From the NCBI GenBank assembly GCA_964443495.1, contig CAYUCS010000003.1, forward strand, positions 132,031 through 196,030: a DNA stretch of 64,000 nt, in the 5' to 3' direction. The notes below the pieces were generated by a model. It did no database searches. It was not told where the DNA came from and saw only the letters and a program-made list of their open reading frames with translations. The DNA is from an uncultured Gammaproteobacteria bacterium. GTDB taxonomy: Bacteria; Patescibacteriota; Patescibacteriia; Patescibacteriales; GWE2-39-37. A program made the position numbers and the translations under genes. Below, piece by piece: positions 48,736 to 57,326 of the stretch. Each line of letters opens with the position of its first letter. The stretch's first letter is position 1.

Positions 48736-50004
48736 ATGCAAAAATGCAACTGTAGGTTGGGAGGGAAGGATCTGCTGAACGCGGTATTGGCGTATAACCA
48801 GTTTTTTGACGATTTGAAGAAGTGCTTCGTCGGACGTGATCGGGTGATAGACAATCTCCGGTTCGCCATGGTGCAGAAACAGCATCTCCTGACCTTCGGA
48901 CCCCCGGGCACCTCCAAAACCGCTATCTTCGATGTGCTGTACAGCGGACTGACTGACGTGAACGGCTTTCATGCCGAACTGTCGATGTTCATGACCGAAG
49001 ACGCACTTTTCGGTCCGTACAATCCGAAAAAGATGCGGGAAGAAGGCGTACTTGAACACAACGTGTCTGGCATGCTGCCTGAAGCCAACGTGGCCCGGCT
49101 CGGCGAGTTTCTTGACGCCAACATGCCGCTGCTCAGGTCAACCCTGTCAGCGCTTAATGAACGTCGCATGGTACGCGGCCGGCAAAATCTGAGCATCCCA
49201 CTCATCACCGCTTACTGCGACACCAACACCAACCCGGGCACTTTTCTGGAACGCCACCCCGAAGCTTGGGCAGTCCTCGACCGCTTCCTGTTCATGGCTT
49301 ACGTCGATTATCTTTCCGATCCCGACGAGATTGCCGAGATGTTGCTTCGCTTCCAGGGCGGCAACGTCACAAATCTCTCCGGCAGGCTGTCGATAAACCT
49401 GATAAACGAGTTATCGCGCCTGACCCTTGAGCCGCCAACCATAATCAAGAGCGAGTTGATTTTCAGGAAGCTGGCCCAGGGCATGCAGGAATATCGCACA
49501 CAGCGGCGCGCCGCCATCAGCGGGAACAAAATATCGGGAGTTATCCTCCCTGAAATTTCCGATCGGCGCCTTTGCTGGGCGTCGCAGGTTGCTGAGGTCA
49601 ATGCGATCTTGAGCGGCCGCGAAGAAGTGGTGCCTGAAGACATTATCGCTTTGAAGCAGGTTCTTGGCACGACCGAGGCAGAGGAGAAGCTGTGGAGCGA
49701 TATTGCGGCGAAGCTTATCGAGGAAATAAAGGAAGAACAGAAGATGCAGCTTGACCATGCTCAGTATATCGCGCTCGAAGGGCTGATCAAAGAGCTCGAC
49801 CAGGTCGATCCGGCAAGCGCCAAAGATATAACGGCGCTGAAGCAGATCGGAGATAATCTCATGTCTTTGAAAAAGCAGGCCGAGATAATCGTCCCTGAAA
49901 ACGACCAAGTCGCTTCGCTTGCTAAAAAGGCGGAGGCCATAATCGCTGAAAAGACTTTGATAATCAAGGGGCAAGCAGCCGCATTCGCCGGAGTATCGAA
50001 CTGA
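48736..50004 (+). CDS. MoxR-class AAA+ ATPase, RavA-like, with Walker B Asp-Ala instead of Asp-Glu
   Basis: Walker A [30 protein letters not shown] parallels RavA [31 protein letters not shown]. Long helical C-terminal half. AGGAG RBS. Confidence 0.8.
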   Translation: [422 protein letters not shown]

Positions 50005-50014
50005 ACCGAAGGAG

Positions 50015-50980
50015 GTGATCGCATTGTTTCTGTCATTGTTAGCTGGCGCTGCGGCGCTTGCGGCGGCCGCGGCCTTAGCGTGGCGCTTCTGGAAAAAAAT
50101 CAGGAAGGATCAGGAGGAAGAACAGAGGAGGCAGTCGAAAAATTTTTCTAGAAACCATGGAGGAGGCAACGGCTTCGAGGAAGAAAATGAGTATTCCGGA
50201 CCTGGCCAGCAAGAACGTGAACGTCGAGCAAGGGATTATTGGGCGCGCAAAAACGAATTGCTGCAGTCGATAGTCAGGTCAATCGAATTCTCAACAAGAG
50301 AGGTAGTTTCCGACATCCAGATTCCCGGCACACTTCCACGCCAATCGATCGTGCCTACTTCAAACTTCAATGTGAGGCCGATGAAGGGCGTGGGCGAATT
50401 TTCCTCCTTGCTGCCATCGGGCCATCTTTTCGAGGATGATCAGTTCTATGGCCGCATCGCAGCCAACAGCCTGCTGGTGGCTGAGTACCAGGAGTATTAT
50501 GGCAATGCTCGCCGCGTCCTTTTCGCGGCATTCGACGGCTCCGGCAGCATGGAAAAATACGGCCGCGTCGAATGGGCCATAGGCCTTTGCGAGGCGATCA
50601 TTGATCGCTGCGTCGAACAGCAGGCCGAGTTTTACCTCGTGGTATATTCGGGAGTGATCAAGGGCGTTTATCGTGTCCATGATCGCGCATCGGCAGCCGC
50701 GCTCAAAAGCAAGCTGCGAGAAGTGCTCCATCCGGATGGAGGTACCGATATCAACCTGGCGCTAAACACGATTTTCGACATGATCGGAAGCGGCAAGTTT
50801 TCAGAAGCACGCGGCTTGCTGGTGACTGACGGAACCGAGTCGGTGGACGAAGAGCAGATTCTGCATCGGCGCAATTCCGAAAGAGTTTTCCTTCATACGG
50901 TAAGCATTGCCGGCGAAAGGGATGATCTGCGACGCATATCCAATAAATTCGACCAACTGGCCATGAATTCCGCTCCATAG
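50015..50980 (+). CDS. Membrane-tethered von Willebrand factor A (VWA) protein, ViaA-like partner
   Basis: N-terminal TM helix followed by RFWKKIRK, which predicts a cytoplasmic body. Complete MIDAS (DGSGSM, GGTD, VTDGTES). Starts 10 nt after the ATPase gene. Confidence 0.85.
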   Translation: MIALFLSLLAGAAALAAAAALAWRFWKKIRKDQEEEQRRQSKNFSRNHGGGNGFEEENEYSGPGQQERERRARDYWARKNELLQSIVRSIEFSTREVVSDIQIPGTLPRQSIVPTSNFNVRPMKGVGEFSSLLPSGHLFEDDQFYGRIAANSLLVAEYQEYYGNARRVLFAAFDGSGSMEKYGRVEWAIGLCEAIIDRCVEQQAEFYLVVYSGVIKGVYRVHDRASAAALKSKLREVLHPDGGTDINLALNTIFDMIGSGKFSEARGLLVTDGTESVDEEQILHRRNSERVFLHTVSIAGERDDLRRISNKFDQLAMNSAP

Positions 50981-51098: not shown

Positions 51099-54000
51099 AT
51101 GTTTTTAAAAGATCACAATGAAGGGCAGACGGGGGGAGCGGCTGGCCAGCAGGCAGCAGCTGCTCCAAACCGGAGTTTTAAAAAAATCGCCATCGCTGCA
51201 ATCGCCTGTTTGGTTGTGGCTGGCGCCGCATTATCGGTGTTCGGTTATCTTAATTCACGTAATACTACATCCGGAAAGCTTGAATTGTCTTTGGTGGCCC
51301 AAGGCGGCGACCTTAACGGCATTGAGAAAAGGGGCTCATTTACCTTGTCTTCAAGCAGGAAGCTGTCTGCAACGGAAATTGAAAAGAATCTGAAATTCGA
51401 TCCGCAGGTGAAATTCGACATTCGTGAGAAGAAGTCCGTATTTTCGTTTCTGGCCGGCAGCGTTTTGGCGGCAAGCCGATCAGCTGCCTTGGATAATCAA
51501 TATGAGATAACGCCCAAGGAGCCGTTGCTCGACGGCGTCGTGTACAAGGTGCAGACAGCCGCATCTTCCAGCTTGCAGTTGGACCATGATTATTCCTGGG
51601 CATTCAACGTAAAGGAAGATTTCGGCATCGATGAGTCGTTGCCGAACGATGAAGCGTACGGCGTACCGGTCAACACCGGCATCGAGGTCACGATGAACCG
51701 CTTGAGCATCGGGCGCGACATCGAGAAATACTTTTCAATCGAACCGAGCGTCAAAGGACGCTTCGAGGTCGGCATGAACAAGATAGTCTTCATTCCGGAA
51801 GGCGACTTGAAAGGCAAGACGTTGTATAGGGTCGTCATCAAGAAGGGCTACAAGGCAGGCGAGAAGAACGAAGAGCTGCTTGAGGATAAGTCGTTCGTTT
51901 TTGAGACTGCCAGCACGGAGAAAGAGGCTTATGTACCGACCATGTCTTGGAGCGACGACTATTTCGAGCTATCTACGAACAACGAAGGCTTTCTTGAGGC
52001 CAGTGGCGACGCCACCACCTCGGAAGTGACATTGAGCCGGTACGCGGATATGGCAGGTTTCTTGAAGGATTTTTACGATTTCCGCGACCGCGCGTACGAC
52101 TGGTCAAATTTCAACAAAGAGCAATTCAAGCCGAGTCCCGCTGCTCAGGAAGTGGCCAAGTTCAAGCCTGAACTCTTGAAGCGGGCAGAGGGAGATAATT
52201 ACGGCTTGATCAAGCTGCCGCGAAAGCTCGAGGCTGGTTTTTATGCGGCCAAAGTCGCAGTCGGCAACGTCGCCGAATACTCGTTTATCCGGGTATCTCC
52301 GCTAGCGTATTATTATTCGCAGATCAACGGAGACGGACTGGTCTGGGCTTACGATTTCGTCAACAAGAAGCCGTTTGCCGGCGTCAGGGTGGCGCTGCTC
52401 GAGAATGGGGGCGGCGAAAAGCAGCTTGGCCAAACCGATGCCGACGGTTTGCTGAAGTTCGATTCAAGTTCGAACAAGGATGATAATTCCGGCATGACCT
52501 TAGTTTTCAGAGGTGACGAAGTCGGTGAGACGGTGGCGCCGGATGCAGGCCGCATCATGGAGAAGCGCAGCAATTTCTATCAAGGATACCTGAATACGGA
52601 TCGTTATGCTTATCGGCTGACTGACAAGGTTCATTTTTGGGGCGTGGTCAAGGGCAGGAGCTTCGATTTGCGCCAGAAGAAGGTGAAAGTCCGCTTGGAT
52701 GATTATATTGAAAAAGAAATCATGGTTTCTCCTTTTGATACCGTCGAGGGAGAGCTTGATTTTGCCGGACTGCCTTCGGGTTATCACAATCTGGTGGTAA
52801 GTTATGACGATGAGGTGATCGCCCAATCAGGAATAGAGGTCTTTTCTTTCGAGAAGCCGCTGTACAAGATCGAGGTTACGCCGGATAAATCATTTTCAGT
52901 GACTGATGCTCCGGTCAAGGCTAAGATCAAGGTCAGTTTTTTTGACGGAACGCCCGTCAAGGATATGGATTTGAACTATTCGATCTATTGGCGCGGCGAC
53001 AATAACGGCACGGTCAGGACCAACGACCAGGGAGAAGCCGAATTGTCCTATACGCCCGGATATTATTTCGAGGAGACTAGTGACCAGTATTCCGATTCAT
53101 GGACGACCTATCCCGGCAGCCTGCGTTTTTCCGTGAGGCCGCAATTGCCCGAAGAGGGTGAGATTTGGGGCGAGGCCTATGTCAGCGTCTATGGACCCAA
53201 GCTCTATATGCAATCCGAGGGGTCGGAAAAAGATGGCGCGTTAGTGTTCAAGAGCAAGGTCAATGACCTGGATCTGGCAACGAGCACGGAAGAAAACCTG
53301 ATCGGCCGTCCGGCCGCCGGCGTCAAGATGAAGGCGAAGGTAGTGCGGTATTATTATGAGGAAAAACCTGATGGCGAATATTATGACCCGATAGAGAAGG
53401 TTAAGATCAAGAAGTTTACCTACGAATTAAAAAAGGAAACAGTCAGGGAAGCTGAGGGCACAAGCGACCAGCGGGGAGAGTGGTCGATCCAGGTCGACAA
53501 GAAAGAAATCAAGAAGTTCGGCTATATCAAGACGATTTTTTCCGCTCAAGACGTTGACGGCAAGAAGGTTATGAGTGCCGCCCAGTCGTATAACTACTAT
53601 CCTAACGACAACACTGCGCTGAACCTGGAGAATGCCGACATCGAAAAGACGCCGGGTGTTTCGTATAAAATCGGTGACAAAGTCAATTTGCGGGTTGTCT
53701 TGACCGGCCCCAAAAAGCCAGTCGACGACCGCACGCTTATTGTCGGCTTCCAGGAGGGATTGCGGAGCGCAAGGCTGATCAATCAGACGACTTTCTCAGA
53801 CACCTTCAGCCGCGACCATGTGCCATCGATGACATATATGGCGGTCAAGATGATGCCGAGCGGCTTCATCGAGAGTTATTATGTGACTGCTTCGTACAAG
53901 GAAGATGAAAGCAAGTTGTCGGTAGAAATATCTTCGGACAAAGAAAGGTACAAGCCGAGGGAAGACATCAATCTCGACATTGCCATCAAGAACAAGTCCG

Positions 54001-56504
54001 GCCAGGGCGTCAAAGCGGTCGCGAATGTCGCAGCTGTCGACGAGTCTCTTTTCAGCGTGACTCCTTGGGGATATGGCGGTGAAATTTTGAGCTCCCTTTA
54101 TGCCGACATCATCGCCTACCCGAGCTCGTTATCTACGAGATATGTCACGGACTATCGCAATGGCGCGGAGAAAGGCGGCTGCTTCGTCGCTGGCACTGAA
54201 ATCAGCTTGGCTGACGGCACAAGAAAGAAGATCGAGGAGGTGCGTGTCGGCGATGAGGTCGTGACTTTCGAGAACGAGAACTCGACCGCCAAGGCCAAGA
54301 GCGTGGTCCAAGGCGTGTCTTCGCATGACGTCGGCGGCTATTTGTTAGTCAATAACAAGCTCAAGGCCACGCCGGAGCACCGGGTTTCGGTCAGCGGAGA
54401 ATGGAAGCCGATCGGCCATGCCAAAGTCGGTGATTTTTTGACGACCGAGGATGGGCGGTCGGAAAAGATCGAGGATATCAGATATGTCAGCGCCAAAAGC
54501 GTGAAAGTTTACAATATTATCGTCGGCCGTTATCACACTTACTTGGCCGATGGCTATTATGTCCATAACGCGGAAAAGGGCGGCGGCGGCGACGTCAGGA
54601 ATTTTTTCGAAGACACGCCTTTGTACAAGCAGATGGAATCAGATGAAAGCGGCCAGCTTAAGGCGTCCTTCAAGGCTCCGGATAACCTGACTAGCTGGCG
54701 TGTTTCGGTCAATGCGTATAGTCCGGAAACTTTCAGCGCTGGCAGCCAAGACAAGCTGGTGCCCGTCGGGCTGCCCTTGTTCGCCGACGCAGTAGTGGCC
54801 AAAAAATATCTGACGGGCGATTCGCCGATCATCAAGATACGCGCGTTCGGCACGGAGTACAAGAAGGACGAGCCGATCGAATTCAGCGTGGCCTGCGAGA
54901 GCTTGAAGCTGTCATTTGCGACCACCACGAAATCGAATGAGACAGCGGTCGCCCTCGGAGCGTTGCCTAGAGGAAGACACGACTTGATAATCAGGGTTAA
55001 GCAAGGCAACCTGTCAGACGCGCTGGAAAAGAAATTCGAGGTTATCGATAATTACTTTAAGGAATTGAAAACCGACAGCAAGCTGCTGCGTGACGGGGCG
55101 GCGGATCTCAAGGGCAATGCGGCCGGTTTTACGGATGTCGTTTTCGTCGATGAGGGCAAGGGCAGATTCTTCGAATATCTTTTGAGCTTGACCTGGCAAT
55201 CAAGCATCCGCTCGGATGTCCAGGCAGCTTCATATCTAGCCGCTAAAGCTCTGAATCAATATTTTTATCCAGACAAAAAACATTTCAACGAAGACATAGC
55301 TTTGTCTGGGTATCAGTCACGGGAAGAATGGGCTGGTCCGCTGGCGGTTTTTCCTTACGGCAAGCCGAGCATCAGGCTGACCGCCGAAATGGCTGATGCC
55401 ATGCCAGAAGCTTTTGATAATACCTGGGCAGCGGATGCTTTGGAGGCTAGATTGAACGAACAGAAACTTGATCCGACGGAAGCTGGCCAAGCATTGTGGG
55501 CTTTGGCGGCGCTCGGTCGTCCCCAGCTGCCATTGATAAACTATCTTAAGAATAGCGCCACCACCACGGTCGAAGCGCGGCTGTATCTGGCCTTAGCGCT
55601 GGATAGTGCCGGCGATTCCGAAGGGGCAAGGGAAATCTATTTCGACCAGCTGCTACCTCAACTCAAGATTGAAAATGGCCAGGCACATTTCGAGGTGGGC
55701 CCCTCTAAGGATGCGAACATCAAAGCAACGGCGATCTTCGGCCTGCTGGTGTCGCGGCTCGATCTTTCCGACGAGGGTCGGAACTTAAAGATGATAATCA
55801 ATTACCTGGCGGACAATCAGCCGAAAGAGGATACGATCGCGCTTGAGGAGGCCATGATCGTAAAGAGCGAAATCGCCAAGGCCGATCAGGGCGACACGTC
55901 GTTCGACTATTCGACCGCTGACCGCAAAGGGTCTGTTGATTTGAGCAAGGGGCGGTCATTCCAGTTGACGCTGTCCAGTCAGGAGTTTCCATCATTATCT
56001 TTCAGCAATGTGAAGGGACTGCCCAGAGCCATAAGCTATTATGAGAATTACGCAGATCCGGCAAAAATACCGACGAGCGATATGCTAAGCGTCGAGCGGC
56101 AATATCTTGTGAACGGCAAAGAGGTTACCGAATTCAAGGAGGGCGACTTGATCACTGTCCGCCTGACTCCTCGCCTTGCAGCCGGAGCGCCTGACGGCTC
56201 GTATCAGCTGGCAGAGTATCTGCCTTCGGCGTTGAAGCCGATCGTCCGCAATTACGGGCTGGACATTGAGACTGGAAGCGATTGCAACCCGATCTGGTAT
56301 CCGGTCAAAACCACTGATGAGGCGGTGTATTTCGATATCGGGAAATGGTTCCAGGCTTCCGAGCGCTGCCAGCAGCGCACGGTCAATTTCAGGGCAAGGG
56401 TGATCGGCAAAGGCAATTTCAAGGCGCAGCCAGCCTCGTTCCAATCGCTTGTCGATGTCAACGTGATCGGCTTGTCAAAAGAGAAGAATATCCAAGTCAA
56501 ATAA
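51099..56504 (+). CDS. Membrane-anchored alpha-2-macroglobulin-like giant protein (thioester-less) with an internal Hint/mini-intein domain
   Basis: RSFKK plus a TM helix gives N-in/C-out topology. Repeated beta-sandwich-like segments. RNFFEDT..APDNLTSWRVSV and LPLFADAVVAKKYLTGDSPIIKIR match the post-bait A2M/C3 motifs. A helical TED-like region (EAGQALWALAALG) has no CxEQ. C-terminal AEYLPSALKPI is a receptor-domain-like motif. Confidence 0.65.
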   Translation: MFLKDHNEGQTGGAAGQQAAAAPNRSFKKIAIAAIACLVVAGAALSVFGYLNSRNTTSGKLELSLVAQGGDLNGIEKRGSFTLSSSRKLSATEIEKNLKFDPQVKFDIREKKSVFSFLAGSVLAASRSAALDNQYEITPKEPLLDGVVYKVQTAASSSLQLDHDYSWAFNVKEDFGIDESLPNDEAYGVPVNTGIEVTMNRLSIGRDIEKYFSIEPSVKGRFEVGMNKIVFIPEGDLKGKTLYRVVIKKGYKAGEKNEELLEDKSFVFETASTEKEAYVPTMSWSDDYFELSTNNEGFLEASGDATTSEVTLSRYADMAGFLKDFYDFRDRAYDWSNFNKEQFKPSPAAQEVAKFKPELLKRAEGDNYGLIKLPRKLEAGFYAAKVAVGNVAEYSFIRVSPLAYYYSQINGDGLVWAYDFVNKKPFAGVRVALLENGGGEKQLGQTDADGLLKFDSSSNKDDNSGMTLVFRGDEVGETVAPDAGRIMEKRSNFYQGYLNTDRYAYRLTDKVHFWGVVKGRSFDLRQKKVKVRLDDYIEKEIMVSPFDTVEGELDFAGLPSGYHNLVVSYDDEVIAQSGIEVFSFEKPLYKIEVTPDKSFSVTDAPVKAKIKVSFFDGTPVKDMDLNYSIYWRGDNNGTVRTNDQGEAELSYTPGYYFEETSDQYSDSWTTYPGSLRFSVRPQLPEEGEIWGEAYVSVYGPKLYMQSEGSEKDGALVFKSKVNDLDLATSTEENLIGRPAAGVKMKAKVVRYYYEEKPDGEYYDPIEKVKIKKFTYELKKETVREAEGTSDQRGEWSIQVDKKEIKKFGYIKTIFSAQDVDGKKVMSAAQSYNYYPNDNTALNLENADIEKTPGVSYKIGDKVNLRVVLTGPKKPVDDRTLIVGFQEGLRSARLINQTTFSDTFSRDHVPSMTYMAVKMMPSGFIESYYVTASYKEDESKLSVEISSDKERYKPREDINLDIAIKNKSGQGVKAVANVAAVDESLFSVTPWGYGGEILSSLYADIIAYPSSLSTRYVTDYRNGAEKGGCFVAGTEISLADGTRKKIEEVRVGDEVVTFENENSTAKAKSVVQGVSSHDVGGYLLVNNKLKATPEHRVSVSGEWKPIGHAKVGDFLTTEDGRSEKIEDIRYVSAKSVKVYNIIVGRYHTYLADGYYVHNAEKGGGGDVRNFFEDTPLYKQMESDESGQLKASFKAPDNLTSWRVSVNAYSPETFSAGSQDKLVPVGLPLFADAVVAKKYLTGDSPIIKIRAFGTEYKKDEPIEFSVACESLKLSFATTTKSNETAVALGALPRGRHDLIIRVKQGNLSDALEKKFEVIDNYFKELKTDSKLLRDGAADLKGNAAGFTDVVFVDEGKGRFFEYLLSLTWQSSIRSDVQAASYLAAKALNQYFYPDKKHFNEDIALSGYQSREEWAGPLAVFPYGKPSIRLTAEMADAMPEAFDNTWAADALEARLNEQKLDPTEAGQALWALAALGRPQLPLINYLKNSATTTVEARLYLALALDSAGDSEGAREIYFDQLLPQLKIENGQAHFEVGPSKDANIKATAIFGLLVSRLDLSDEGRNLKMIINYLADNQPKEDTIALEEAMIVKSEIAKADQGDTSFDYSTADRKGSVDLSKGRSFQLTLSSQEFPSLSFSNVKGLPRAISYYENYADPAKIPTSDMLSVERQYLVNGKEVTEFKEGDLITVRLTPRLAAGAPDGSYQLAEYLPSALKPIVRNYGLDIETGSDCNPIWYPVKTTDEAVYFDIGKWFQASERCQQRTVNFRARVIGKGNFKAQPASFQSLVDVNVIGLSKEKNIQVK
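54180..54569 (+). other. Hint (mini-intein/BIL-like) domain, aa 1028-1157 of the giant protein
   Basis: Block A CFVAGTEISLADG, block B ATPEHRV, block F VYNIIVGRYHTYLADG, block G YYVHN. The next residue is Ala. Flanked by AEKGG on both sides. Confidence 0.8.
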
Positions 56505-57326
56505 ATGTCGGCAAAAAAATACGCCTTGTTGCTATTGTCCTTGTTTCTGGCTGTCCAACCCGTCATGGCTGGCACACCTTTGGTTTATGACTATAAGGAC
56601 TACAAGAGCTTGATCGGACGCAAGAAGAATCCGGATTATCGCCTGCGCATAAAATCGCCATCGGTCGGCATCGTGTCCCATCATCTTCCGACCGCTTCGC
56701 CATTGATCGATAACTTTTATTTCCAGCTGAAAAAAAATCGGCCGAATATCAAGACCTTCGTCGTGATCGGCCCTGATCATTCTGAGCGTTGCCGGCACAA
56801 GTTCGGCGTCAGCGATGCTGACATCACTACGATGTACGGCAGCATCGCGGCAGACAAGAAGCTGGTCAAGCGAATTGAAGTTGCTGGCGCCAAAATAGAA
56901 AACCACTGCTTCGAGGGCGAACACGCGATAGGGGTCCAGGCGAACTATATCAGGAAATTTTTCCCCCAAGCCAAGATCGCTCCGATACTCCTGTCTTTCG
57001 CGGCCAAGCAGTCGGATTTCAGCGGGCTTGTCAACGAACTTGAAAAAAATCGTGCAGACATCTTTGTTTTGGCCAGCGTGGACTTCACCCATTACATGGA
57101 CGTGCAACAGGCTGAGGCCATCGACGCCATAAGCCTGAAAATGATCAACGGATTGGAAGGCGGGTCTTTTTCATTGAAGCAGATAGATTCGCCAGCTACC
57201 ATCAAGGCGGTGCTTTGCCTCGCCCGAAGGCTCAGGTTGCAAGCGGAGGTTGTCGAACATAAGAACTCATTCGACTATAACGGCGCATACAAAAATACGA
57301 CCAGCTATTTCTCGGTCTTTTTTTAA
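56505..57326 (+). CDS. Memo-like protein (AmmeMemoRadiSam system protein B family) with signal peptide
   Basis: The ATG immediately follows the TAA of the giant gene. Signal KKYALLLLSLFLAVQPVMAG. Family motifs VSHHLP, VIGPDH, EGEHAIGVQ and ASVDFTHY. Confidence 0.75.
   Translation: MSAKKYALLLLSLFLAVQPVMAGTPLVYDYKDYKSLIGRKKNPDYRLRIKSPSVGIVSHHLPTASPLIDNFYFQLKKNRPNIKTFVVIGPDHSERCRHKFGVSDADITTMYGSIAADKKLVKRIEVAGAKIENHCFEGEHAIGVQANYIRKFFPQAKIAPILLSFAAKQSDFSGLVNELEKNRADIFVLASVDFTHYMDVQQAEAIDAISLKMINGLEGGSFSLKQIDSPATIKAVLCLARRLRLQAEVVEHKNSFDYNGAYKNTTSYFSVFF

Follow-up and report, generated by a model that had tools for sequence, protein, structure and literature searches.

Proteins of the A2M family have two hallmarks, namely a bait loop that is cut by a foreign protease and a buried Cys-Gln thioester that captures the protease. 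In the complement proteins C3, C4 and C5 scission occurs in the loop splitting the macroglobulin (MG) domain that is split by the bait loop in A2Ms, and gives two chains that are held by that domain. In the bacterial A2M known as ECAM, cleavage untethers the bait, which displaces the contacts of the latent state and leads to a conformational change (PMC4498604). Here we describe an A2M-like gene whose bait loop carries a Hint domain of the autoprocessing type, together with the family to which it belongs. The gene lies in a window of 64,000 nucleotides (positions 132,031 to 196,030 of the forward strand of contig CAYUCS010000003.1, assembly GCA_964443495.1) from a genome deposited as an uncultured Gammaproteobacteria bacterium and placed by GTDB in the Patescibacteriota. 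Nucleotide positions are those of the window and its features are collected in Table 1.

The closest described relatives of the inserted domain are the bacterial intein-like (BIL) domains. Those of the A type are characterised by an N-terminal Cys, a C-terminal His-Asn and the lack of a C-flanking nucleophile (PMC7765530, PMC7664689). BIL domains without a nucleophile at +1 give mostly N- and C-cleaved products and can be turned into efficient splicers by a single mutation (PMC7664689), and A-type BILs are described as unable to ligate (PMC7765530). In the BIL2 domain of BUBL1 from Tetrahymena thermophila a Gly-Gly~Cys thioester is resolved by the epsilon-amine of a lysine, which produces an isopeptide (PMC8616854).

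The open reading frame (ORF) at 51099-56504 of the forward strand encodes a predicted membrane-anchored A2M-like surface protein of 1801 amino acids (aa), and within it aa 1028-1157 form a complete Hint domain of 130 aa. A first-pass annotation of the window, made by a model from the sequence alone, had reported such a domain with Cys1, a TPEH block, a terminal His-Asn and Ala at +1, ending nine residues ahead of RNFFEDT...PDNLTSWR in a protein without the thioester motif CxEQ, and all of these elements are found where it placed them. The in-frame translation of 54165-54701 reads AEKGG/CFVAGTEISLADG...TPEH...VYNIIVGRYHTYLADGYYVHN/AEKGGGGDVRNFFEDT...PDNLTSWR, the slashes marking the ends of the Hint. 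Cys1 in CFVAGTEISLADG is aa 1028 (54180-54182), the TPEH of block B is aa 1091-1094 (54369-54380), blocks F and G read VYNIIVGRYHTY...YYVHN, VYNIIVGRYHTYLADG covers aa 1137-1152 and the terminal His-Asn is aa 1156-1157 (54564-54569). The residue that follows, Ala1158, is not a nucleophile, and the Hint contains no homing endonuclease. Nine residues lie between the end of the Hint and R1167 of RNFFEDT. The Pfam family PT-HINT (PF07591, gathering cut-off 27.7 bits) matches with 38 bits in the whole protein and with 44 bits (E 3.3e-11) in the isolated segment, weaker matches being those to Vint, Hint_2, Hom_end_hint, Hint and Intein_splicing. The GC content of the Hint is 0.53 and that of the gene 0.52.

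The position of the Hint relative to the bait was addressed with Pfam, profile alignments and a structural model. Pfam recognises Big_5, bMG3 and A2M_BRD (aa 854-986) ahead of PT-HINT (aa 1038-1156), and A2M (aa 1175-1214) and bMG10 (aa 1663-1783) on its C-terminal side, which puts the Hint between A2M_BRD and A2M. The chain re-enters its MG domain with R1167-NFFEDT...PDNLTSWR, which corresponds to a motif found after the bait in proteins of the A2M family. When the Hint was deleted from the profile, GGDVRNFFEDT aligned with human A2M from residue 728 (728-TETVRKYFPETWIW, beginning 728-TETVRKYF) and with the equivalent segment of CD109. Human A2M has its bait region at residues 690-728 (UniProt numbering). 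On ECAM the same profile placed the junction at about 951/952 and the post-Hint motif at about 951-960. Cleaved ECAM has a disordered bait stretch at Arg923-Leu942 and further bait residues at Arg956, Gly958 and Asn963 (PMC4498604), and the junction falls between the two.

An AlphaFold model was built for aa 840-1801 (the C-terminal 962 aa, with MG1-5 absent) from a subset of 42 sequences and has a mean predicted local distance difference test score (pLDDT) of 85.4 and a predicted template modelling score (pTM) of 0.60. Runs of at least three residues with pLDDT below 50 occur in it only at aa 1010-1026 and aa 1158-1164. In the model both stretches are the linkers that carry the Hint, and together they interrupt a single MG domain. 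The region ahead of them (aa 854-986), which holds the first half of this domain and the bait-region domain, is built of strands with two short helices, after which the chain becomes disordered. The sequence alignments and the model thus agree that the Hint occupies the C-terminal end of the bait loop within the split MG domain, and the position proposed by the first-pass annotation is borne out by the profiles to human A2M and ECAM and by the match of the model to ECAM and SaA2M. The further proposal that a self-processing module has replaced the bait holds in part. The Hint and its conserved linkers take up most of the loop, but some 7-10 variable disordered residues (aa ~1010-1021, with columns 1015-1021 variable) persist upstream of G-A-E-K-G-G, so that the N-side linker consists of a residual bait-like stretch and then a conserved segment with Gly-Gly at -2/-1.

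In order to see how widely this arrangement occurs we searched for homologs. Word-indexed searches returned only 11 Hint-containing relatives (93-29% identity) and a version with a 105-sequence profile added none. An exhaustive hidden Markov model (HMM) search with a profile of the Hint and its flanks against 1.84 billion cluster representatives (50% identity clusters) gave 567 matches at E <1e-30, and among the best 150 of the 567 at least 118 clusters match the whole profile and have the same A2M-Hint architecture. Most of these 118 proteins are ~1700-1900 aa long with the match at ~aa 1000-1250, and some are shorter fragments. A homolog from Candidatus Falkowbacteria lies in identical synteny, and among species-representative genomes A2M-Hint loci are present in Parcubacteria, Saccharibacteria, Doudnabacteria, Magasanikbacteria, Gottesmanbacteria, Gracilibacteria, Moraniibacteriota and other Patescibacteria, as well as in a few metagenome-assembled genomes (MAGs) with other labels. 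Loci L010 and L013 are among those from Saccharibacteria. The full architecture is seen in MAGs labelled 'uncultured Gammaproteobacteria' or 'Bdellovibrionales' (loci L018, L024, L028, L029, L031 and L033); unless such labels are untrustworthy, the family reaches beyond Patescibacteria.

The Hint is strongly conserved throughout the family. In 129 proteins it is 128-131 aa long, and Cys1-Phe2 and the terminal His-Asn are present in every one (129/129). Gly stands at -1 in 126 of the 129 and Gly-Gly at -2/-1 in >92% (G1026 and G1027 are conserved at 95-97%). At +1 the residue is Asp in 51 proteins, Ala in 29, Glu in 23, Gln in 16, Ser in 6, Thr in 2, Asn in 1 and Ile in 1, a non-nucleophile therefore in 121/129 and Ser or Thr in 8/129. 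An alignment of 105 diverse full-length members has just 23 invariant columns out of 1801, and eight of them are at the Hint or its junctions (C1028, F1029, H1094, N1139, H1156, N1157, K1160 and R1167); D1172 is invariant as well. The lysine corresponding to K1160, encoded here at 54576-54578, is found at +2 or +3 in 105/105. Measured by column conservation the Hint is the best-conserved region of the protein (0.57 compared with 0.38-0.47 elsewhere), and pairs of sequences are on the whole 45% identical within it but 30% identical outside it. In 127/128 cases an A2M Hint has another A2M Hint as its nearest neighbour, and the divergence of Hint and host is correlated with r = 0.93 in 12 close homologs, though only with 0.37 across the 105 diverse members. 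This pattern indicates an ancient insertion followed by vertical inheritance under strong purifying selection.

Conservation of this kind bears on two explanations in which no chemistry of the Hint serves the host. A catalytically dead Hint might serve as a structural or binding module on the bait loop, as Hint folds are sometimes reused without chemistry, yet invariance of Cys1, of the block B Thr and His and of the terminal His-Asn is unexpected for a purely structural domain and we regard this explanation as hardly credible. A neutral or selfish passenger, that is a trapped intein-like element kept since its non-excision would inactivate the host, would show the same catalytic conservation in a mini Hint with all catalytic blocks, and related Hints do occur in tandem arrays that resemble expanding elements. 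However, the domain has neither an endonuclease nor a nucleophile at +1, it evolves more slowly than its host and is apparently inherited vertically, and a disordered length-variable loop should tolerate its deletion, yet it has been kept across many patescibacterial lineages. We therefore consider a passenger very unlikely.

Relatives without a Hint, possibly secondary losses, also exist (P0012-P0015). At the insertion site (compared with aa ~1020-1166) the patescibacterial P0012 (locus L005) has GYGGGGAEMGGGLRANEVRRNF, which looks like the two Hint linkers head to tail. This could be a precise loss of the Hint or the state before insertion, and BLAST scores did not place P0012 clearly inside the Hint clade.

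Comparison with known Hint systems consistently ranked BIL domains first. With the single sequence the closest solved protein was BUBL1 BIL2 (6Y75/6TMM, E 1e-6), and with the family profile BUBL BIL2 (6TMM/6Y75) scored E 2.5e-16, the Clostridium thermocellum BIL 2LWY 2.9e-12 and RecA mini-inteins ~1e-6. A model of aa 1005-1185 has a Hint core with pLDDT >90, and Foldseek again returned 6Y75/6TMM at the top (E 2.8e-12, root-mean-square deviation (rmsd) 2.1-2.2 Å), then 2LWY (E 1.9e-10, rmsd 1.7 Å, 31% identity) and, lower, canonical inteins (~1e-8) and Hedgehog (1AT0, ~1e-6). The Hint fold, block A, the TxxH of block B and blocks F/G of the Hint superfamily are all present. In addition, the features of A-type BILs are found, since the closest relatives are BILs, the domain begins with Cys, ends in His-Asn and has no C-flanking nucleophile, and its setting is likewise that of a surface, non-housekeeping host with an N-terminal transmembrane segment and an extracytoplasmic body. 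On account of sequence, fold, the HTY...VHN motif, the absence of a +1 nucleophile and of an endonuclease, and the secreted host, we assign the segment to the A-type BIL/PT-HINT class and not to the mini-inteins.

The likeness to autocleaving BIL domains noted in the first-pass annotation is in this way upheld, while its term 'mini-intein-type' gives way to a vertically inherited BIL/PT-HINT-type domain fixed across Patescibacteria. Its alternative of a conventional intein with a +1 nucleophile in homologs does not agree with the 121/129 non-nucleophiles at that position. A canonical class 1 intein is ruled out by the +1 residue (Ala1158 here; D/A/E/Q/N/I in the 121) and by the pattern of inheritance, and a class 3 intein is inapplicable as a +1 nucleophile is needed there too. 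The behaviour of a mobile intein is not seen in a domain of 128-131 aa without endonuclease that co-diverges with its host in a disordered length-variable loop. Nor is the Hint a polymorphic-toxin releaser, the 644 aa downstream being the MG, TED-like and C-terminal MG domains of an A2M with no toxin domain, or a device for Hedgehog-like sterol transfer, given that it has no sterol-recognition region, ends in His-Asn and runs straight into the MG domain.

With the C. thermocellum BIL (2LWY) and PT-HINT PF07591 the A2M Hint shares the ~130-aa fold, Cys1, TxxH and HTY...VHN, the lack of a +1 nucleophile and of an endonuclease, and secreted or surface hosts. Known BIL/PT-HINT domains are however found within hypervariable regions or directly ahead of C-terminal toxins, whereas the A2M Hint has a single fixed position in the bait loop, is strictly conserved across a large clade and has distinctive GG/C and HN/x(E)KGG flanks. 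Its A2M-like host family is conserved and not hypervariable like the BIL hosts of PMC7765530. BUBL1 BIL2, the closest domain by sequence and fold, has the same Gly-Gly ahead of Cys1, but it is eukaryotic and intracellular with ubiquitin-like flanks, while the A2M Hint is flanked by the two halves of an MG domain in an extracytoplasmic bacterial protein. The acyl acceptor of BIL2 is a lysine (PMC8616854), and attack by a lysine in the A2M Hint is hypothetical.

The flanks themselves attracted the attention of the first-pass annotation, which described a duplicated AEKGG. Both copies are present, at aa 1023-1027 (54165-54179) and aa 1158-1162 (54570-54584), and the 15-mers that code for them are identical at 13/15 bases with both mismatches synonymous. 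Exact duplication is however restricted to the close clade P0001-P0010, and the family consensus is G-A-E-[G/K]-G-G/C...HN/[D/A/E/Q](E)-K-G-G with R..F.D 3-11 residues on. In 83 non-A2M Hints of the clade the commonest flanks are GGG/C and HN/KGG, the offset of the Lys varying from +1 in tandem arrays to +2 or +3 in A2M hosts. As the same junctions are found in tandem and other non-A2M Hints, GG/C and HN/..KGG are a property of the Hint clade, and the apparent duplication looks like the insertion of a Hint unit that brought along its own linker on either side. A target-site duplication in the DNA was considered and rejected, the repeat being only 15 nt, clade-specific and explained by the linker preference of the Hint clade. 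A resemblance of AEK to the peptidoglycan stem (L-Ala-D-iGlu-L-Lys) is superficial, +1/+2 varying (D, E, Q) in most members.

The closest relatives of the Hint outside A2M hosts (P0105-P0109, P0136, P0119 and others) are secreted proteins that consist almost wholly of tandem Hints (2-9) joined by linkers of the form HN/K(G)GG/C. P0109 combines five Hints with a signal peptide and a C-terminal transmembrane segment, P0136 has four Hints and P0106 has nine.

The host protein is an A2M by its fold. The model of aa 840-1801 shows MG domains, a helical TED-like domain and a C-terminal MG domain, and Foldseek matched it to ECAM (5A42, E 1.9e-33; 4RTD, 3e-33) and SaA2M (4U48, 1.8e-31), followed by eukaryotic A2M, CD109, TEP1 and C3/C5 (E 1e-33 to 1e-24 overall). 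The MG array, a loop-split MG domain, a TED-like domain and a C-terminal MG domain, all typical of the A2M/C3 superfamily, are shared with ECAM/YfhM and SaA2M (5A42, 4RTD, 4U48), as is the outward-facing anchorage in the cytoplasmic membrane. The protein differs from these two in its lack of CxEQ, in the Hint that leaves only ~7-10 variable residues of the bait loop and in being anchored by a transmembrane helix and not through a lipobox, which the protein lacks. The sole 19-residue Kyte-Doolittle window above 1.6 in the whole protein, at aa ~28-50, is predicted to be a membrane anchor or an uncleaved signal with the remaining protein extracytoplasmic. The TMq of the model was 0.44 on 4RTD, 0.40 on 4ZIQ and 0.40 on 6TAV, which are activated (protease or methylamine) forms, and lower on the native structures 5A42 (0.29) and 4U48 (0.25).

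A motif scan found no C.EQ anywhere in the 1801 aa, and the former thioester site in the TED-like domain reads SSIRSDVQ. CxEQ is absent from 109/114 full-length members of the family, most of which have a conserved D-R-x-D-Q in its place. The site thus looks less like the result of random decay than like a conserved replacement, possibly by an Arg-Asp pair. The other 5/114 carry PYGC[VT]EQT at the TED position along with an intact Hint, and they are the members most similar to P0020, a canonical thioester A2M. These sequences indicate that the Hint and a classical thioester once coexisted and that most lineages then lost the thioester. Because 5/114 members carry both, the Hint did not arise as a replacement of CxEQ, and the suggestion that a Hint thioester substitutes for the missing motif is weakened as an account of origin, although it is still compatible with a functional redundancy that came later. 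An A2M fold without CxEQ is also seen in the YfaS/MagD type. The Hint family stands apart as a group of its own, although the source annotation calls several distant homologs YfaS. Pfam matches to yfaA/P/Q/T-type families are absent among the genes close to the A2M-like gene, and no YfaS or MagD protein with a Hint is known to us.

As the catalytic residues are invariant across the family, the sequences are best read as indicating that the Hint would be a functional domain at the bait, one able to process itself or to form a thioester. In its most probable form, for which we judge the chances to be about even, the Hint would be excised in the manner of a BIL through a Gly1027~Cys1028 thioester and cyclisation of Asn1157, leaving the chain cut at the bait. 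Following export and folding, the Gly1027-Cys1028 bond would be converted into a thioester by an N-S acyl shift assisted by Thr1091 and His1094, while Asn1157, assisted by His1156, would cyclise independently and break the Asn1157-Ala1158 bond. The canonical trans-esterification would be blocked since there is no Cys, Ser or Thr at +1, and the main outcome would be cleavage at both junctions as in characterised BIL domains. The Hint would then leave, and the break in the A2M-like chain would coincide with the site of protease attack in classical A2Ms. Strands of both resulting chains (aa ~51-1027 and 1158-1801) build the split MG domain, which would hold them together much as the furin-processed beta and alpha chains of C3 are held together. 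In complement, furin cuts at an Arg-rich site and the loop contains the anaphylatoxin domain, whereas the loop of the A2M-Hint protein carries its own cleavage catalyst. The result would be a built-in 'bait cleavage' or a maturation step, either constitutive or conditional. Cleavage would probably dominate over ligation and may alter the conformation of the A2M.

Several observations weigh against this reading. We infer activity of the Hint from conservation alone, and the same catalytic conservation is equally expected of a passenger element that is forced to excise. If cleavage were constitutive it would be incompatible with a latent protease trap. Neither the invariant Lys1160 nor the Gly-Gly at -2/-1 is needed for hydrolytic cleavage, and these residues point towards ligation or conjugation. 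The better superposition of the model on activated A2M forms is weak support for cleavage of the bait and may mean nothing, as the pTM is 0.60 and MG1-5 and the N-terminal half are missing.

The conserved lysine and glycines are accommodated by ligation, in which the Gly1027~Cys1028 thioester would be resolved by an amine of the C-flank, the Hint excised and the chain rejoined. The amine could be the epsilon-amine of Lys1160, giving a Gly-Lys isopeptide as in BUBL BIL2, or the alpha-amine of Ala1158 once freed by cyclisation of the Asn. Aminolysis by an alpha-amine was reportedly proposed for the A-type BIL of C. thermocellum by Dassa et al. in 2004 and by Aranko et al. in 2013 (as cited by PMC7664689). 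The mature bait would then be a short loop rich in Gly (...GAEKGG-AEKGGGG...), and the Hint-less P0012 has GYGGGGAEMGGG at the site, which resembles such a joined product. A lysine that is present in 105/105 members at a varying distance (+2/+3) and at +1 in tandem Hints (HN/KGG/C) fits a flexible side-chain nucleophile, and the Gly-Gly in >92% is like the ubiquitin-like C-terminus that BUBL uses. Against this, a Hint that merely removes itself adds nothing and should easily be lost from a loop that tolerates indels, whereas in fact no other part of the protein is as well conserved. Characterised BILs also mainly cleave (PMC7664689). As one review denies A-type BILs ligation (PMC7765530) and the other has cleavage predominate (PMC7664689), we treat ligation as a rival to bait cleavage, in our view the main one, and consider it rather unlikely.

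The Gly-Cys thioester could instead act as a warhead between molecules, the C-terminal Gly-Gly of the N-terminal part capturing an external amine or hydroxyl on a trapped protease lysine, on a component of the host cell beneath the epibiont or on the bacterium's own wall. Such a conjugation would resemble thioester capture by A2M, cholesterol transfer by Hedgehog or the 'single-ubiquitin-dispensing platform' of BUBL. It is consistent with the conserved Gly-Gly/Cys, with the absence of CxEQ here and in 109/114 members and with the predicted extracytoplasmic, membrane-anchored state of the protein. BIL2 moves its N-extein to lysines of other proteins, for example a Ras GTPase (PMC8616854), and cultivated Patescibacteria grow attached to host cells (PMC10633639, PMC11665869). 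Yet the five members with both CxEQ and Hint do not fit a simple replacement warhead, an acceptor-binding module like the sterol-recognition region of Hedgehog is lacking, the invariant Lys beside the junction is a competing internal nucleophile and the idea is purely inferential, all of which leads us to hold it decidedly unlikely. A broader version, to which we give a small though slightly better chance, has the Hint as an ATP-independent extracellular acyl-transfer device that would pass Gly-Gly~Cys either to the invariant Lys or to target lysines or amines, such as those of an attacking protease or of the envelope of the epibiont's host cell, and so form a ubiquitin-like GG-Lys isopeptide.

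Directly downstream, with no base between the stop codon of the A2M-like gene and its own start, lies a gene for a Memo-like and presumably secreted protein. Of the 36 A2M-like loci listed, 31 have a Memo-like gene in this position, including that of the Hint-less P0012 (the loci cited alongside the window for the pairing are L001-L005, L007, L008 and L010-L036). The five loci without Memo do not contradict the pairing, because four of them are contig ends or likely weak partial matches and the fifth, L006, is a Hint-less Firmicute-like relative. The Memo-like protein is by gene order a conserved partner of the A2M-like protein and not of the Hint specifically, and we know of no described A2M-Memo partnership. 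Upstream, 48736-50004 and 50015-50980 of the forward strand encode a MoxR-type AAA+ ATPase and a membrane-anchored VWA protein; the MoxR gene matches Pfam bpMoxR, the family of MoxR-vWA-beta-propeller ternary systems. MoxR and VWA were rejected as partners, being kept only in the close Falkowbacteria relative P0002 (L001) and not in P0010, P0011 or P0012. The neighbourhood, with MoxR/VWA upstream and Memo downstream, differs from the yfhM-pbpC (PBP1c) pair of E. coli.

Table 1 Features of the A2M-Hint locus, with positions in the 64,000-nucleotide window
Feature	Position	Strand	Basis
A2M-like gene hosting the Hint	51099..56504	+	ORF call, Pfam, AlphaFold/Foldseek
N-terminal hydrophobic segment, aa ~28-50	51180..51248	+	Kyte-Doolittle
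First half of split MG domain and bait-region domain (A2M_BRD, aa 854-986)	53658..54056	+	Pfam
Disordered N-side linker, aa 1010-1027	54126..54179	+	pLDDT, column conservation
Hint autoprocessing domain (A-type BIL/PT-HINT, predicted), aa 1028-1157	54180..54569	+	Pfam, profiles, model
C-side linker AEKGGGGDV, aa 1158-1166	54570..54596	+	Translation, pLDDT
Re-entry into split MG domain, R1167-NFFEDT...PDNLTSWR	54597..54701	+	Profile alignments
Degenerate thioester site SSIRSDVQ, aa 1368-1375, in TED-like helical domain	55200..55223	+	Family alignment
Memo-like gene, 273 aa, probable signal peptide	56505..57326	+	Pfam Memo PF01875 E 3.2e-20; hydrophobic N-terminus

Both parts of the protein are of known kinds, an A2M and a BIL/PT-HINT domain, and one homolog is labelled 'polymorphic toxin-type HINT domain-containing protein' by NCBI. 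Full-text searching found no paper that links Hint, BIL or intein with macroglobulin, and the A2M-Hint protein is not mentioned in the Cell 2023 paper on saccharibacterial genetics. Four features appear to be undescribed, namely an autoprocessing domain with a constant place in the bait loop, the retention of this domain across Patescibacteria, its flanks with Gly-Gly and an invariant Lys, and a thioester that has mostly been lost.

The family thus has a bait loop with what is predicted to be its own bond-breaking, thioester-forming catalyst, in proteins from which the classical thioester is mostly gone. If the Hint is active, the trigger of an A2M would have been internalised, either as a self-cleaving 'bait' or as a new warhead, and the known biological uses of BIL domains would be extended. 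The Hint clade with GG/C...HN/KGG junctions may also serve protein engineering. Acyl transfer, if true, would represent a second, evolutionarily independent route of covalent capture in the A2M superfamily, and it could also be a mechanism of covalent attachment for Patescibacteria, ultrasmall and mostly episymbiotic bacteria whose surface biology is little known and in which this large, surface-exposed protein is conserved.

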